From: Escherichia phage vB_EcoM-fFiEco06
Strand: one strand, 5' to 3'
DNA length: 64,000 nucleotides
Sequence record: NC_054914.1
Below, piece after piece: positions 2,459 through 57,860 of this stretch (position 1 is the stretch's first letter; the number at the start of each line of letters is the position of its first letter). Position numbers and translations under genes: made by a program. The notes under the pieces were generated by a model that saw nothing but the letters and a program-made list of their open reading frames with translations, was not told the DNA's origin and did no database searches.

Positions 2459-4275
2459 TACTGGCTCATCCATTCTTTACGAAGGTCAGCATTATCTCCC
2501 ATGAGCATTTCAAAAAGCTCTTTCCAGTTCTCAGGAAGTTTAACAACATCATATACTGGATTTTGAATCATCTCACGATATTCAGATTTTTCCAAAGAGC
2601 CAAGTCCTTTAATATAACGGATGCTATGTTTAGGTAGAGCATCTTTAGCACTCTCATATTCAGCGACTGTATAAAACCATTCTTGTTTTTTACCGACCTG
2701 AGCGATGATTACAGGAGTTTTGACAAAACGAATTCTTCCTTGCTCAAACAGTTCTGGCCAATTACTAAAAAACCCGAGCAGAGAAGGATAAATGCTTCCT
2801 AGACCATCATGGTCAGCATCAGTCATAATAGCAATATTATGATAATTCAAGTTTTCAGCTTTTTCACCGAGAACTAATCCAGTGATTGCGCAAATATCAA
2901 ATAGTTCTTTGTTTTTAAGCATATCTGCATAAGACATACCCCAACTGTTGAGAACTTTACCGCGCAATGGATAACCACCGTGAAGTTCTTTATCACGAAC
3001 ATCAATAAGATATCCGATAGCCGAATCACCCTCAGTCAAGAAAAGAGTAGTGTCAGCATCTTTACCACAAAGATTCGCTTTGATATGTTTATGAACCTTA
3101 GCTTTAGAAGCCTTTTTAGCTGCTTTAGTTTCTGCTGCTTTTTCTGCCGCCAATTTACGAGCCAAAGCAGCTTCAATAATCGGCATTAGAATTGCTTCAT
3201 TATTTAGAATAGCGCGTGAAATCTTTTTAGCATCAAGTTGAATATGACTACGAATTTCGCCAAATGGAGAAGTCAAACGCTCTTTAGTTTGAGAATCAAA
3301 TCGCATGTTTTTCATATCACGAACAAACATAACGATAGTCAAACATTCTTTAACACGCGCTTTAGTTACATCAATTTTGAACTTACGTTTGATTTGTGGA
3401 ATAAGGTCTTCACAAATATCATCCATAACACAGTCAATGTGATGGCCACCATTCTTAGTGTGAATGTTATTGACGTATGTTAATTGACGAAAACCATCCG
3501 GTGAACGACCAACCGCAATAGAACAATTTTCTTGTTCTTGAACAATAGCATGCTCATCATATTGGCGTGCATATTTCTTAAAATTGCCCTGAACCTTTTT
3601 ACCATTAAAGGTAAATTGAATATCAGGATAAACTACTGCAAGTGTCTGGAGACGATCTAGTGTAATGTCAAGATAAACTTGGGACAGCTCATTAGTTTCA
3701 AATGACATAAAATCAGGAATGAAAGTAACACGAGTTCCTTTCCATTTTCCAGGAATAGTTTCCCACGATTTATTTTCCATGCCATTTGAACAACGAACTA
3801 CAATATTATTTTGACCATCACCAGTTTCACCGACAAACATCACAGAAAAAATGTTTGTCAAACTAGAACCAACACCATTCATACCGCCAGTGACGCGTTC
3901 TTTATCATCACCGAAGTTACCACCTGCTTTTGGAATAGTCCATGCAGCAACAGGACCAGGAATTTCTTCACCGGTAGGTGTTTTAACCATCGCCTGCGGA
4001 ATACCACGACCGTTATCTTCAACTGTTACTTGATTGTTTTTAATAGTAACATTAATTTTATTTGCGAATTTAAACTTAGTACGAATACCTTCATCTACTG
4101 AGTTATCGATAATTTCATCAATAAGCTTAACAAGACCAGGTACATACTGAACACTTTCCCATTTACCAAACAGAAAGCGCTCATGCATTTCATTAGCAGA
4201 AGAGCCAATATACATGCCGCTACGCTTTTTGATATGTTCAATATCGCTCAGAATTTTAATTTCATTCTTAATCAT
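2458..4275 (-). CDS. 39: DNA topoisomerase II large subunit, GyrB-like ATPase plus Toprim, continuous (fused 39+60 form)
   Basis: GHKL motifs EDNGRGIP and GMNGVG, Toprim motifs LTEGDSA and IMTDADHDG; ATG at 4273-4275, track start 4278 is GTG; about 605 aa. Confidence 0.9.
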   Translation of the reverse strand: MIKNEIKILSDIEHIKKRSGMYIGSSANEMHERFLFGKWESVQYVPGLVKLIDEIIDNSVDEGIRTKFKFANKINVTIKNNQVTVEDNGRGIPQAMVKTPTGEEIPGPVAAWTIPKAGGNFGDDKERVTGGMNGVGSSLTNIFSVMFVGETGDGQNNIVVRCSNGMENKSWETIPGKWKGTRVTFIPDFMSFETNELSQVYLDITLDRLQTLAVVYPDIQFTFNGKKVQGNFKKYARQYDEHAIVQEQENCSIAVGRSPDGFRQLTYVNNIHTKNGGHHIDCVMDDICEDLIPQIKRKFKIDVTKARVKECLTIVMFVRDMKNMRFDSQTKERLTSPFGEIRSHIQLDAKKISRAILNNEAILMPIIEAALARKLAAEKAAETKAAKKASKAKVHKHIKANLCGKDADTTLFLTEGDSAIGYLIDVRDKELHGGYPLRGKVLNSWGMSYADMLKNKELFDICAITGLVLGEKAENLNYHNIAIMTDADHDGLGSIYPSLLGFFSNWPELFEQGRIRFVKTPVIIAQVGKKQEWFYTVAEYESAKDALPKHSIRYIKGLGSLEKSEYREMIQNPVYDVVKLPENWKELFEMLMGDNADLRKEWMSQ

Positions 4276-14994: not shown

Positions 14995-15240
14995 TTAACC
15001 ACCAGTTACTTTCCACAAATCTTCGTTTGCAGCAATCCATTCAGTACGCTGATTTTCTTCATATACAGTAGTATATGCTGCTTTTTCTGAAGGGAACGTC
15101 TGGTAATGAGCACCAGAAATTTTGTGAACGTCAGAATAAAGAGGGAAAGCTACTGAAATTTCCTTTCCTTCAATTTTCTTATTTCCATCTAATTTCTGCT
15201 CAAATGTTTTGATATTAACATAACCGCGAGTACTAGCCAT
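14995..15240 (-). CDS. soc: small outer capsid protein Soc
   Basis: 81 aa; MASTRGYVNIKTFEQKLDGNKK recalled as T4 Soc. Confidence 0.9.
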   Translation of the reverse strand: MASTRGYVNIKTFEQKLDGNKKIEGKEISVAFPLYSDVHKISGAHYQTFPSEKAAYTTVYEENQRTEWIAANEDLWKVTGG

Positions 15241-15270: not shown

Positions 15271-15278
15271 TATTTATA
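15271..15278 (-). promoter_or_regulatory. late promoter TATAAATA upstream of soc
   Basis: minus strand TATAAATA about 30 nt upstream of soc ATG, followed by AAGGAG. Confidence 0.6.
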
Positions 15279-15887: not shown

Positions 15888-17227
<1,340 letters not shown>

Positions 17228-17252
17228 TATATCATCCTCAGCAATTTATTTT

Positions 17253-17282
17253 ATAATACCATAACAAGCTGAGAAAGTAAAC
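17253..17282 (-). promoter_or_regulatory. early promoter upstream of the 186-aa ORF and dam
   Basis: GTTTAC-N18-TATTAT. Confidence 0.55.
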
Positions 17283-17326
17283 AAATTTATGAAATTTGTG
17301 ATAAATATTAATTTAAAGGAGGACAT

Positions 17327-17527
17327 ATGGCACAAAAATTAATGGCACTTGTTAATGCCATAAAAGGTAATAAAAAACGTATAGCTTTTACTATTTCTGC
17401 TATGGTAGGAATTTTACTCTGGAACTTTATTTTATCACCAATTGCAATTGCGCATGGTGTTAATATTCCAGTAGTTACTCTTGATACATTCGTAGATCTA
17501 GCATTTGCTTTAGTTGGGTTAATTTAA
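17327..17527 (+). CDS. small hydrophobic membrane protein (plus strand)
   Basis: 66 aa; AGGAGG Shine-Dalgarno 5 nt upstream of ATG; two hydrophobic helices; convergent with primase. Confidence 0.55.
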   Translation: MAQKLMALVNAIKGNKKRIAFTISAMVGILLWNFILSPIAIAHGVNIPVVTLDTFVDLAFALVGLI

Positions 17528-18552
17528 ATCTTGGCATATTTAGATAACCGCATTTTAGCCATTAACCCCTGGGCAATATTATTTTTCATATATTCCATAA
17601 TTTGTTCAGGGGTTGCACCTTCCTTTCTAATCATATCATTAACATCTTTTGATTTCCAGGGAGATTTATCCCAAAACATAACCCTTTCTCCTGCATCAAC
17701 TAATTTAGTCATTCGCTTGATAGTGTCAGGGTGACGAGGCTCATTATCTAAAACCCACACTCGTCTATCTTTAAATGGAACAACTTCTAGGTCTAATTGA
17801 CCACCCGTAATAGCTATACCATTTTCAATAAAAAGTGAATCTATAGGTCCTTCTAGAACATATACATCACCATCTTTAACTCGTTCGACTCCATATATTT
17901 TTGTTGCCTCAGGATAAGCTTTGATGGTGATATATTTTTGAGGAGCATCTTTCTTTAATGCACGTCCTTGAAAAGACTCAGCTTTTCCATTAGCATTATA
18001 AATTGGAATAACAAGACGAGGCTCAGAAATTTCCTTTTTGTATGTTCCCGGTGCTATGCTATTAACTAATTTAGGCCATTCGGTTGTAAACCAAAGATAT
18101 TTCCATTTATCCTTTGGAATACAACGAGCTTTTACATATTTTATAATTGGATGGTCTTCCGCCAGTTTATCTAATCTAACACATGACGGAAGAGATTTAA
18201 TTATTTTCTTCTCAGGATGTTTAGGAAGTTCTTTAGGTTTTTCTACTGGACGACTTTTACCTTTTTCTTTTCTTATTTCAAAGATATACTCACGATATAA
18301 ATCAGGTTCAAACTCCTTTAAATATATTCCGATTGGCGCATGATAGTTACAGTTATAACAATGAATATTTCCTTCATTATTATCACCATAATACCATCCA
18401 CGCGCTTTATTTTGGTCGGTTTTTGAATCTCCACAAACTGGGCATCTAAACCGTAATTTAAAAGTTGAACTATTATTTACTTGTGTGAATTTAGGTAAAT
18501 GAGCTAATGCACGATATGCAAACTCATTATCAATCCAAGCTATTGATGACAT
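17524..18552 (-). CDS. 61: DNA primase
   Basis: 342 aa; zinc ribbon CPVCGD ... CYNC and Toprim region; recalled as T4 gp61. Confidence 0.9.
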   Translation of the reverse strand: MSSIAWIDNEFAYRALAHLPKFTQVNNSSTFKLRFRCPVCGDSKTDQNKARGWYYGDNNEGNIHCYNCNYHAPIGIYLKEFEPDLYREYIFEIRKEKGKSRPVEKPKELPKHPEKKIIKSLPSCVRLDKLAEDHPIIKYVKARCIPKDKWKYLWFTTEWPKLVNSIAPGTYKKEISEPRLVIPIYNANGKAESFQGRALKKDAPQKYITIKAYPEATKIYGVERVKDGDVYVLEGPIDSLFIENGIAITGGQLDLEVVPFKDRRVWVLDNEPRHPDTIKRMTKLVDAGERVMFWDKSPWKSKDVNDMIRKEGATPEQIMEYMKNNIAQGLMAKMRLSKYAKI

Positions 18553-18555
18553 TCT

Positions 18556-18720
18556 TTACTCTTCTTTTTCTTTAGATTCCTCTTTTTTCTTTTTAGGAAT
18601 CTGTTCAGGACCTTTATTTACTACAGCACCTGATGTTGTTCCAGTAGAGATATTTTCAGGATTACCACCTGAATCTCCAGCAACCATATCTTCTTTAATA
18701 AATTCTTTATATGTTTTCAT
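18556..18720 (-). CDS. small hypothetical protein
   Basis: 54 aa ORF not in track (MKTYKEFIKEDMVAGDSGG, lysine/glutamate-rich tail); closely spaced to flanking genes. Confidence 0.45.
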   Translation of the reverse strand: MKTYKEFIKEDMVAGDSGGNPENISTGTTSGAVVNKGPEQIPKKKKEESKEKEE

Positions 18721-31842: not shown

Positions 31843-31850
31843 TATAAATA
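31843..31850 (+). promoter_or_regulatory. late promoter TATAAATA (plus strand) upstream of HNH endonuclease
   Basis: exact TATAAATA 34 nt upstream of ATG, followed by AAGGA Shine-Dalgarno. Confidence 0.6.
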
Positions 31851-31883: not shown

Positions 31884-32600
31884 ATGAATTATAAACTAAT
31901 TTATGAAAAGTTAATCTCTAATGCTAAATCTCGAAAACTTGATTGCTATACTGAATCTCATCACATTATACCACGCTGTTTAAATGGCAGCGATGATGCT
32001 TCAAACTTAGTAGATTTAACACCAGAAGAGCACTATGTAGCTCATCAACTTTTAGTAAAAATTTATCCTTCTGAACCAAAATTAGTCTATGCTGCTAACA
32101 TGATGACAGTTTCCACGAAATACGCTAAACGCAACAATAAAACTTTCGGTTGGATTCGTCGTAAACTCTGGGAAATAGAAAAGAACAAAGAATTCTCCCA
32201 GGAGACACGAAAGAAAATGTCTGATGCAGTAGCTAATAAAGCAAGACTAACTTGTCCTCATTGCGGTAAGTCTGGATTAAGCGGGAATATGAATCGTTGG
32301 CATTTTGATAACTGTCCAAATCACCCTAATCCTAAAGTTAGACCACCAATGTCTAAAGAACACAGAAATAATATCTCAAACGGGCTTAAAGCAATCGTTC
32401 TTGAAGAAACATCCTGCGAATTCTGCGGAATGATAGGCAAGAAATGCGTTATCGCAGCGCATAGAAATTTCTGCAAGAAAAATCCAAATGGACGCAAGAA
32501 AACTGAAAAGACTGGTACTTGCGTCCATTGTGGTAAAGTTACCACTTTCGGAAATTTATCAAGATGGCATAATGATAACTGTAAATATAAACCTAGCTAA
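31884..32600 (+). CDS. HNH homing endonuclease with three C-terminal zinc-finger-like repeats
   Basis: 238 aa; HNH motif ESHHIIPRCLNGSDDASNLVDLTPEEHYVAH; three CxxC...H..C repeats; only long plus-strand gene, convergent with gene 46. Confidence 0.8.
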   Translation: MNYKLIYEKLISNAKSRKLDCYTESHHIIPRCLNGSDDASNLVDLTPEEHYVAHQLLVKIYPSEPKLVYAANMMTVSTKYAKRNNKTFGWIRRKLWEIEKNKEFSQETRKKMSDAVANKARLTCPHCGKSGLSGNMNRWHFDNCPNHPNPKVRPPMSKEHRNNISNGLKAIVLEETSCEFCGMIGKKCVIAAHRNFCKKNPNGRKKTEKTGTCVHCGKVTTFGNLSRWHNDNCKYKPS

Positions 32601-44219: not shown

Positions 44220-44260
44220 AATAAAACCCTTACCTTAAATAGATAAGGGTATTTATTATT

Positions 44261-57852: not shown

Positions 57853-57860
57853 TATTTATA
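57853..57860 (-). promoter_or_regulatory. late promoter TATAAATA upstream of rI cluster
   Basis: minus strand TATAAATA 26 nt upstream of the ATG at 57827. Confidence 0.5.

Follow-up and report, generated by a model that had tools for sequence, protein, structure and literature searches.

A small plus-strand gene convergent with primase gene 61 is conserved in T4-type phages and may encode a late inner-membrane protein

The 64,000-nucleotide stretch of Escherichia phage vB_EcoM-fFiEco06 DNA analysed here (hereafter, the window) contains a 66-codon open reading frame (ORF) on the plus strand, placed tail to tail with the primase gene. We conclude from comparative data that this ORF is almost certainly a true gene, which is conserved among the T4-type phages of Enterobacterales. 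Hydropathy and a structural model make it very probable that the product is a membrane protein. As an overall explanation, we favor a late inner-membrane protein gene with an envelope role linked to lysis, and the probability that we assign to this reading is about 0.4. The ORF as such is already known: most T4-like genomes list it as a predicted hypothetical protein, and there is a PHROG for it. New here are the selection on the protein, the conserved late-promoter signal, the fixation beside primase across genera, the two paralog types, the homologs in prophages and the omission of the gene from the T4 reference annotation.

Results

A plus-strand ORF shares its stop with the primase gene

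The window is Tequatrovirus DNA, and its positions 16600-18600 are 100% identical to Tequatrovirus fHoEco02 and to several other Tequatrovirus genomes. In the fHoEco02 annotation (MG781191), the CDS is listed with the same coordinates as hypothetical protein HE2_031. Between 13.6 and 21.6 kb of fHoEco02, the genes srh, mrh, 56, dam, 61 (primase), sp, dmd and 41 (helicase) lie on the minus strand, and HE2_031 is the sole plus-strand gene among the 17 annotated features. A sequence-only reading of the window had proposed a plus-strand ORF of 66 amino acids, convergent with primase and with overlapping stops. The ORF is present as proposed (Table 1), and the stop codons of the two genes overlap by 2 nt within a TTAA that is common to both. 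The same reading had described a strong ribosome-binding site 5 nt before the ATG. The AGGAGG is indeed there; however, its spacing to the ATG is 4 nt, not 5. The combination AGGAGG-N4-ATG occurs as a single copy in the window, as compared with 0.13 copies expected, and a GGAGG or GGAG motif is retained in all orthologs that we examined.

Table 1. Features of the small gene and its surroundings, in positions of the window
Feature	Position	Strand	Basis or remark
Early-type sigma-70 promoter, TTTACT-17-TATTAT with upstream TG	17253..17281	-	Scan; T4 early promoter in the ASO78A annotation
Late-promoter-type octamer GATAAATA	17300..17307	+	T4 consensus TATAAATA, G at -13; ends 19 nt before the ATG
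Shine-Dalgarno sequence AGGAGG	17317..17322	+	4 nt ahead of the ATG
CDS, 66 aa and stop, MAQKLMALVNAIKGNKKRIAFTISAMVGILLWNFILSPIAIAHGVNIPVVTLDTFVDLAFALVGLI	17327..17527	+	ATG at 17327, TAA at 17525-17527
N-terminal amphipathic helix (residues 2-14, predicted) and basic cluster K13, K16, K17, R18	17330..17380	+	AlphaFold2 model, charges
Terminator-like hairpin and T-run within the small gene's 5' end (doubtful)	17332..17361	-	Pattern scan; terminator in the ASO78A annotation
Predicted transmembrane helix, residues 19-42, with invariant W32, N33 and P38	17381..17452	+	Hydropathy, model, alignments
Predicted periplasmic tail: loop HGVNIPVVT, then amphipathic helix 52-66	17453..17524	+	Model, hydropathy
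TTAA, shared stop codons of the small gene (+) and primase (-)	17524..17527	.	Sequence and ORF list
Primase gene 61, 342 aa, convergent neighbor	17524..18552	-	PHROG 47 DNA primase, E = 1.2e-106; annotation

The gene is fixed beside primase and its product is under purifying selection

By tblastn, the ORF was found in 691 phage records, in 685 of them at near full length. Identity to the ORF product was 89-100% in Tequatroviruses and approximately 44-56% in Mosigvirus and Gaprivervirus. The 66-aa protein gave a significant full-length match to the profile of PHROG 2024 (E = 1.6e-31), in which residues 3-66 cover profile positions 2-65 of 65. It is a full-length member of this family (RB32ORF030w, VR7ORF033w, fHoEco02 HE2_031), from which it differs in nothing. 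All A-type, B-type and distant relatives that we scanned also fall into PHROG 2024, whose label is "unknown function" and for which Pfam has no family. A profile search of 1.84 billion representative proteins returned only 16 clusters (50% identity), all of 33-70 aa and most of 57-70 aa, and these have the core W-N-[FY]-x3-P-x-A-x3-G-x2-L-P in common.

The family has two paralog types. Subtype B (approximately 22-25% identity) occurs in T4-like phages of the JS98 type and in those of Klebsiella, Enterobacter, Pectobacterium, Citrobacter, Kosakonia and Edwardsiella. Gapriverviruses carry an A and a B paralog in tandem, and in several of them the B copy contains a nonsense codon or a frameshift; this decay suggests that the A and B types are redundant.

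We compared 14 T4-like loci from at least seven lineages, in which the primases are 59-99% identical to that of the window. At all 14, the small ORF lies on the strand opposite to primase and tail to tail with it; where the two are adjacent, it overlaps, abuts or stops a few nucleotides from the primase 3' end. The same arrangement is found in genomes that possess a single paralog, be it of the A-type or of the B-type. In DK-13 a homing endonuclease and in VR25 the tandem paralog is inserted between the ORF and primase. On the other side, the neighbor in T4-type phages is dam, the 186-aa ORF or gene 56.

The protein product is under purifying selection. Overall dN/dS is approximately 0.07-0.4 and second codon positions vary least. 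For example, the window and Mosigvirus G53 (pS 0.705, pN 0.331) differ at 30, 13 and 39 first, second and third codon positions, respectively, and the B copies of VR25 and JS98 differ at 17, 11 and 40. The dN/dS values were 0.07-0.10 for JS98-type pairs and 0.07-0.24 for close pairs.

It should be mentioned that the doubtful hairpin at 17342-17361 on the minus strand (Table 1) could terminate primase transcripts. Its marginal fold (-9.4 kcal/mol, z = -1.96) and the absence of an equivalent from the Mosigvirus, Gaprivervirus and JS98-type loci that we scanned rule it out as the cause of the regional conservation.

The gene is intact in T4 and is omitted from the T4 reference annotation

In the reference genome of T4 (NC_000866 / AF158101), a 309-bp gap between dam (end 17625) and gene 61 (start 17935) carries no annotation. 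The ORF is found there at 17738..17938 on the plus strand (97% identical), with a GATAAATA box at 17709..17716. T4 does not possess the 186-aa gene that is located upstream in the window, and the deletion ends just before the box. Box, Shine-Dalgarno site and ORF are all intact after the deletion of this neighbor. The ORF is likewise unannotated in T2, PP01 and another T4 record.

If the ORF were a chance product of an intergenic gap and not a gene, its omission from the T4, T2 and PP01 records would be natural. Plus-strand ORFs of similar length do arise by chance in an AT-rich genome: in the ORF list of the window, plus-strand ORFs of 67-101 aa sit antisense to neighboring genes, and therefore the length of the ORF by itself is not above chance. 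However, its conservation, the selection at the codon level, its fixed position and the rarity of ATAAATA in the genome (see below) raise it above that level. Together with the conserved expression signals, the comparative data effectively refute the chance reading, and the weight that we leave to it is negligible. Thus, the plus-strand ORF of the sequence-only reading stands as a real gene by conservation and selection.

Upstream signals point to late expression

We compared the octamer GATAAATA upstream of the ORF with the T4 late-promoter consensus TATAAATA. Seven of the eight positions match, and the mismatch is at the first base, position -13. By the yardstick used for T4 late genes, whose transcription depends on gp55, gp33 and gp45, the octamer is of the late-promoter type; the late-promoter-like box that had been noted upstream of the ORF is confirmed at this site. 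An equivalent octamer was found 14-22 nt upstream of the orthologous start at 14 of 14 loci, as GATAAATA, AATAAATA, CATAAATA, ATTAAATA or the perfect TATAAATA. These boxes agree with TATAAATA at 6-8 of the eight positions, their form is G/A/C-ATAAATA where it is not ATTAAATA or the perfect TATAAATA, and a GGAG-type ribosome-binding site precedes the start codon at every one of the 14 loci. The box persists although the surrounding sequence and the upstream neighbor vary between lineages. Because all but two of the boxes (12/14) deviate from the consensus, the promoter may be a weak one. In the list of T4 late promoters given by Geiduschek and Kassavetis (PMC2988020), 32 of 50 have the perfect TATAAATA and nine have A at -13; deviations are commonest at this position, and a TA-to-AT variant is also known.

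The heptamer ATAAATA is six-fold depleted in the window, with 7 copies on both strands of the 64 kb versus 41.6 +/- 6.4 expected. Five of the seven copies lie 19-33 nt before a Shine-Dalgarno sequence and ATG. The genes behind these five are soc, an endonuclease VII homolog, a plus-strand HNH-like ORF, a 70-aa ORF and the 66-aa gene. In T4, soc is a known late gene, and gene 49 (endonuclease VII) presumably has a late promoter as well.

A scan of the plus strand upstream of the gene for sigma-70 promoters gave only a weak 9-of-12 match (17208-17235), which was no better than in shuffled sequence. The early-type sigma-70 promoter on the minus strand (Table 1) serves the 186-aa ORF and dam and points away from the small gene. 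Our literature searches yielded no publication on this ORF and no report of a transcript, a ribosome footprint or a protein for it. The conserved octamers, the depletion and placement of ATAAATA, and the lack of a good plus-strand sigma-70 match make a late gene most likely, and we consider late expression probable on the basis of these signals. The sequence-only reading had placed the gene in an early region. This is correct for the location, whereas the gene's own signals indicate late expression.

We propose the following scheme. Because the early and middle genes around it are all on the other strand, the gene would be readable only from its own promoter. This promoter would be GATAAATA, a variant of the gp55-type late promoter. 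Transcription would begin near 17313 and give a 14-nt leader that holds the strong Shine-Dalgarno site.

In the plus-strand sequence between the ORF and the primase gene, we found no terminator, and a late transcript would therefore enter gene 61 in the antisense direction. In other words, the plus-strand late RNA might be an antisense silencer of primase mRNA and the ORF incidental. There is a precedent in T4, in which both strands are read into RNA at separate times at a number of sites (PMC2988020). However, the purifying selection acts at the protein level with a codon-position bias; the start codon, the Shine-Dalgarno sequence and the frame are retained at approximately 25-55% amino-acid identity; and the prophage homolog described below has no adjacent primase gene. 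We regard an RNA with an incidental ORF as highly improbable. An antisense effect could be an additional consequence of the late transcript.

The product is predicted to span the membrane once

The AlphaFold2 model of the 66-aa protein (pLDDT 78) contains helices at residues 2-14, 16-42 and 52-63. The helix at 16-42 has a pLDDT of approximately 86, and the best 19-residue hydropathy windows begin at residues 19-24, with a mean Kyte-Doolittle value of approximately 2.0. All five lysine and arginine residues are within positions 4-18, and D53 and D57 are the sole acidic residues. In the alignments, W32, N33 and P38 in the putative transmembrane helix and G44 and P48 in the following loop are invariant. 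The C-terminal helix at 52-66 has a hydrophobic moment of 1.44. Because it comprises only 15 residues and carries the two aspartates, it is not expected to span the bilayer. A small plus-strand membrane protein with two hydrophobic helices had been proposed from the sequence. The membrane protein is borne out by hydropathy and the model, with one transmembrane helix; the second helix is not, since only residues 19-42 form a full transmembrane helix and residues 52-66 form a 15-residue amphipathic one.

The positive-inside rule and the placement of the lysine and arginine residues suggest that the N-terminus is cytoplasmic and that the last ~24 residues are periplasmic. Thus, the 66-residue product would insert in the inner membrane by a single transmembrane helix, with its basic N-terminus in the cytoplasm. 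About 24 residues would then be in the periplasm, and the terminal amphipathic helix would probably lie on the outer face of the membrane.

The N-terminal half could also be read as a cleavable signal peptide of 42 residues, from which a 24-residue hydrophobic peptide would be freed into the periplasm. A basic N-region, a hydrophobic core, P38 and the sequence A40-I41-A42 before H43 fit this idea in the window, T4 and the Gaprivervirus A-type. However, the A-x-A is not kept: Mosigvirus has L-V-A at this place, and the B-type and distant members have A-A-T or A-A-S. Moreover, conservation peaks within the hydrophobic core, an uncommon pattern for signal peptides, and a core of approximately 24 residues is long for one. 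Cleavage is very unlikely, and we retain the single membrane anchor.

A Pfam scan of the 66-aa protein gave no match at E <= 1, and NCBIfam gave no informative family. In a fold search of the AlphaFold2 models against viral structures, meaningful scores were obtained only for members of the same family.

Longer homologs are present in Enterobacterales prophages

Pattern scans of viral contigs detected proteins of 91-104 aa, in which the C-terminal core is the same and the N-terminal part is polar and longer. Relatives of 91-104 aa are common in Enterobacterales chromosomes and are all named "hypothetical". When the T4-type family was compared with a 96-aa prophage protein by profile-profile alignment, the probability was 96.9% (E = 2e-10, 43 columns). 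Judged by this alignment, the T4-type protein is homologous to the 96-residue Enterobacterales prophage protein. When bacterial genomes and metagenomes were scanned for bridging relatives, the only sequences recovered were close copies from Enterobacterales prophages.

In E. coli, the prophage block begins with a tail-tip protein, DUF8377, an 88-aa membrane/coiled-coil protein and a T4-type lysozyme. A SegE-like GIY-YIG endonuclease, a 186-aa protein and a 103-aa protein follow, and the 96-aa homolog closes the block, approximately 1.4 kb from the lysozyme gene with three genes between. Beyond the block lie variable cargo genes and then host genes. Two of 5,426 complete E. coli genomes matched this block, and in the matched part nearly all genes are annotated as "hypothetical protein". 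The tail and lysis neighborhood of the prophage homolog points to a link with lysis, which is suggestive only.

The resemblance of the prophage relatives to holins is below threshold

Pfam PF11351 (GTA_holin_3TM) was the top match for 14 of 15 prophage relatives. The best match had E = 6.6e-4 and 20.6 bits, so that the relatives from prophages and viral contigs (92-104 aa) all stay under the PF11351 gathering threshold of 24.8 bits. The 15 representatives are 64-79% identical to the first member, and because they are so closely related the 14 matches are not independent. In a control with reversed sequences, 12 of the 15 matched an unrelated family, DUF2244, at E = 0.0013. NCBIfam gave a spurious transporter match for 7 of the 15 relatives (E = 8.6e-4). 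One short relative matched a PHROG holin family below threshold (E = 5e-4), and Foldseek returned four proteins named "Holin of 3TMs" among 12 weak matches.

We also aligned the family by hhalign with ICP1 TeaA and with ORF26 of Oceanospirillum phage PD0307, and neither alignment was significant. It should be mentioned that TeaA and PD0307 ORF26 themselves scored under the PF11351 threshold here; the literature places both in or near PF11351, TeaA by remote homology only. Another example of PF11351 in the literature is the holin of the Rhodobacter capsulatus gene-transfer agent, and the holin activity of ICP1 TeaA is known from expression assays (PMC7182436). Given the sub-threshold scores, the equal performance of the reversed control, the non-independent sequences and the null result of hhalign, we do not claim homology to holins.

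At the level of architecture, 3TM holins and the 66-aa protein are alike in being small, phage-encoded inner-membrane proteins. The 96-aa relatives also have a common layout with 3TM holins, namely a hydrophobic or amphipathic N-terminus, a polar Q/E-rich linker, a W-R motif and membrane helices. In contrast, 3TM holins have three membrane helices; the T4-type protein has one full transmembrane helix by prediction and gives no match to PF11351. Moreover, in T4-type phages the gene is not adjacent to an endolysin gene, as would be expected of a PF11351 member.

Discussion

Our best guess for the function of the small gene is a late envelope role tied to lysis, in which the product would be a holin-like helper or a modulator of lysis timing. 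The sequence-only reading had named superinfection exclusion and lysis timing as frequent roles of such proteins. Taken by itself, a lysis-related function is somewhat unlikely and is put forward tentatively. Against it, the gene adjoins primase in T4-type phages and no lysis gene. T4 already has a full lysis set (t, e, rI, rIII and the spanins), its main holin is gpT, and mutants of t or e do not lyse. Furthermore, the near-saturating screen for rapid-lysis mutants by Burch et al. in 2011 reportedly yielded no locus at this site. Judged by the phenotype of the t and e mutants and the outcome of this screen, the protein does not suffice as a holin and is dispensable for lysis inhibition in laboratory hosts. 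In PHROG and Pfam scans, the 66-aa protein matched none of the Imm, Sp, holin T and RI families.

Nevertheless, the known small envelope proteins of T4 are a useful comparison. Imm, Sp and RI act in the membrane or the periplasm, as is predicted here, and RI is built in a similar manner, with an N-terminal helix as anchor and a periplasmic C-terminus. However, the periplasmic domain of RI is folded and comprises approximately 70 residues, as compared with approximately 24 in the 66-aa protein. None of the three proteins has a detectable sequence relationship to it. Imm and Sp are early proteins encoded on the minus strand, whereas the small gene is on the plus strand and has late-type signals only. 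A good early or middle promoter, as expected for genes of the Imm and Sp kind, was not found for the small gene, which runs opposite to the surrounding early and middle units.

These differences bear on a second possibility, superinfection exclusion or envelope protection. Here, the product would block DNA entry or wall attack by later phages, or guard the envelope of the infected cell, like T4 Imm and Sp or prophage Cor. A small inner-membrane protein whose conserved loop is predicted to face the periplasm is compatible with this, and the restriction of the family to phages and prophages of Enterobacterales suggests a target in the host envelope. In addition, the prophage homolog is located at the far end of the tail-gene region, which is a frequent site of accessory genes such as cor and lom. 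However, no match to the Imm or Sp family was found, the T4 exclusion proteins are early, whereas the signals of the 66-aa gene are all of the late type and the early promoters point away from it, and the prophage copy lies in a late operon of tail and lysozyme genes, presumably without an evident promoter for expression in lysogens. Because T4 Imm and Sp are early, the late timing suits lysis better than exclusion, and we consider an exclusion role rather unlikely.

Modulation of a host membrane protein, or anti-defense, is a third possibility, in which the peptide would act late in infection by binding an inner-membrane protein of the host, for example a protease, a transporter or a membrane-bound abortive-infection effector. 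The most conserved residues, W32, N33 and P38, lie within the putative transmembrane helix and fit recognition between helices, and the host range of the family is narrow. The two interchangeable paralog types and their lineage-specific loss may also reflect a pattern that is common for genes of host interaction. On the other hand, neither sequence nor context links the gene to a known defense or anti-defense system, and the gene is stably syntenic across genera, outside variable accessory islands. We consider this role quite unlikely.

Returning to a lysis-linked envelope role, we can word a more specific version for the T-even phages, T4 included. These phages may possess an overlooked late inner-membrane protein, a trimmed derivative of a 3TM holin, which would tune lysis timing or membrane energization alongside gpT, RI and RIII. 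This version is doubtful. Such a derivative could have escaped notice for want of an annotation in the T4 reference genome.

For phage lysis, lysis inhibition and late transcription, T4 serves as the reference organism. Its reference annotation omits this gene, and adding the gene is a small, concrete correction. RNA-seq counting, proteomics databases, knock-down libraries and similar genome-wide work on T4 are usually built on annotated genes and therefore probably miss this one. The gene is one more candidate for envelope or lysis functions. If its product acts on the lysis machinery, this would add an extra component to a textbook system; otherwise, it would be one among many conserved small membrane proteins of phages.

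A 186-aa ORF beside dam and its loss from T4

The 186-aa ORF directly adjoins the gene for the GATC methylase Dam and belongs to PHROG 8706, a family of unknown function. In Pfam, this ORF gave weak, sub-threshold matches to two restriction endonucleases, DpnII, which cuts GATC (E = 0.0045), and BanI (E = 0.0093), and its counterpart is named "putative restriction endonuclease" in the genome record of one relative. No relative of the ORF was found in the PDB. T4 (NC_000866) does not possess this gene: the 3' end alone remains, in the gap between dam and gene 61. Read by eye on the reverse strand, the T4 remnant yields a stretch of 15 residues. The deletion stops a short way before the GATAAATA box that precedes the small gene, the one encoding the 66-aa predicted membrane protein.

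Relatives of the small gene in Gapriverviruses and prophages

In Gapriverviruses, the small gene is present as two tandem paralogs, A and B. One genome has a B copy interrupted by a nonsense codon at position 2, and in a second genome the B copy is frameshifted. In the case of DK-13, a homing-endonuclease gene stands in place of the B copy, inserted between the small gene and the primase gene. The 96-aa homolog of the small gene lies in a prophage block, which is rare (2/5,426 complete E. coli genomes). Because a T4-type lysozyme and a SegE-like GIY-YIG endonuclease accompany the homolog, the block carries several T4-related genes. The lysozyme orientation is inverted in some copies of the block.

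Features in the window and in retrieved loci (L numbers)
Feature	Location	Strand	Remark
soc	window 14995..15240	-	intact, 81 aa; perfect late promoter-type box ahead
TATAAATA	window 15271..15278	-	predicted perfect late promoter of soc
186-aa ORF	window 16667..17227	-	between dam and small gene
TATAAATA	window 31843..31850	+	perfect; 33 nt ahead of ORF starting near 31884 (+)
AATAAATA	window 44250..44257	-	upstream of 157-aa endonuclease VII-like ORF
TATAAATA	window 57853..57860	-	upstream of 70-aa ORF
Remnant of 186-aa gene	T4 about 17626-17700 (L002 about 2627-2700)		
Gaprivervirus small-gene paralogs	L005 1995-2401		VR25
Gaprivervirus small-gene paralogs	L015 about 2700-2899		
Gaprivervirus small-gene paralogs	L006		TH40
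Gaprivervirus small-gene paralogs	L007 2372-3121 (B copy replaced)		DK-13
Prophage block with 96-aa homolog	L044-L046 3887-6291		E. coli chromosomes, beside mipA

Late-promoter-type boxes in the window

At the position of soc, no CDS is annotated in the nearest GenBank record (MG781191, phage fHoEco02). The segF gene, which lies between soc and gene 56 in T4, is missing from the window. The ORF near 31884 (238 aa) is another plus-strand gene within a minus-strand region; it carries an HNH-like motif and probably encodes a mobile endonuclease. The two minus-strand boxes at 44250 and 57853 look like additional late promoters within the early region. In the whole window (both strands), VATAAATA octamers are ten-fold depleted (3 observed versus 29.8 expected) and the ATAAATA heptamer six-fold (7 observed versus 41.6 +/- 6.4 expected). 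The depletion of ATAAATA fits with stray late promoters being selected against.
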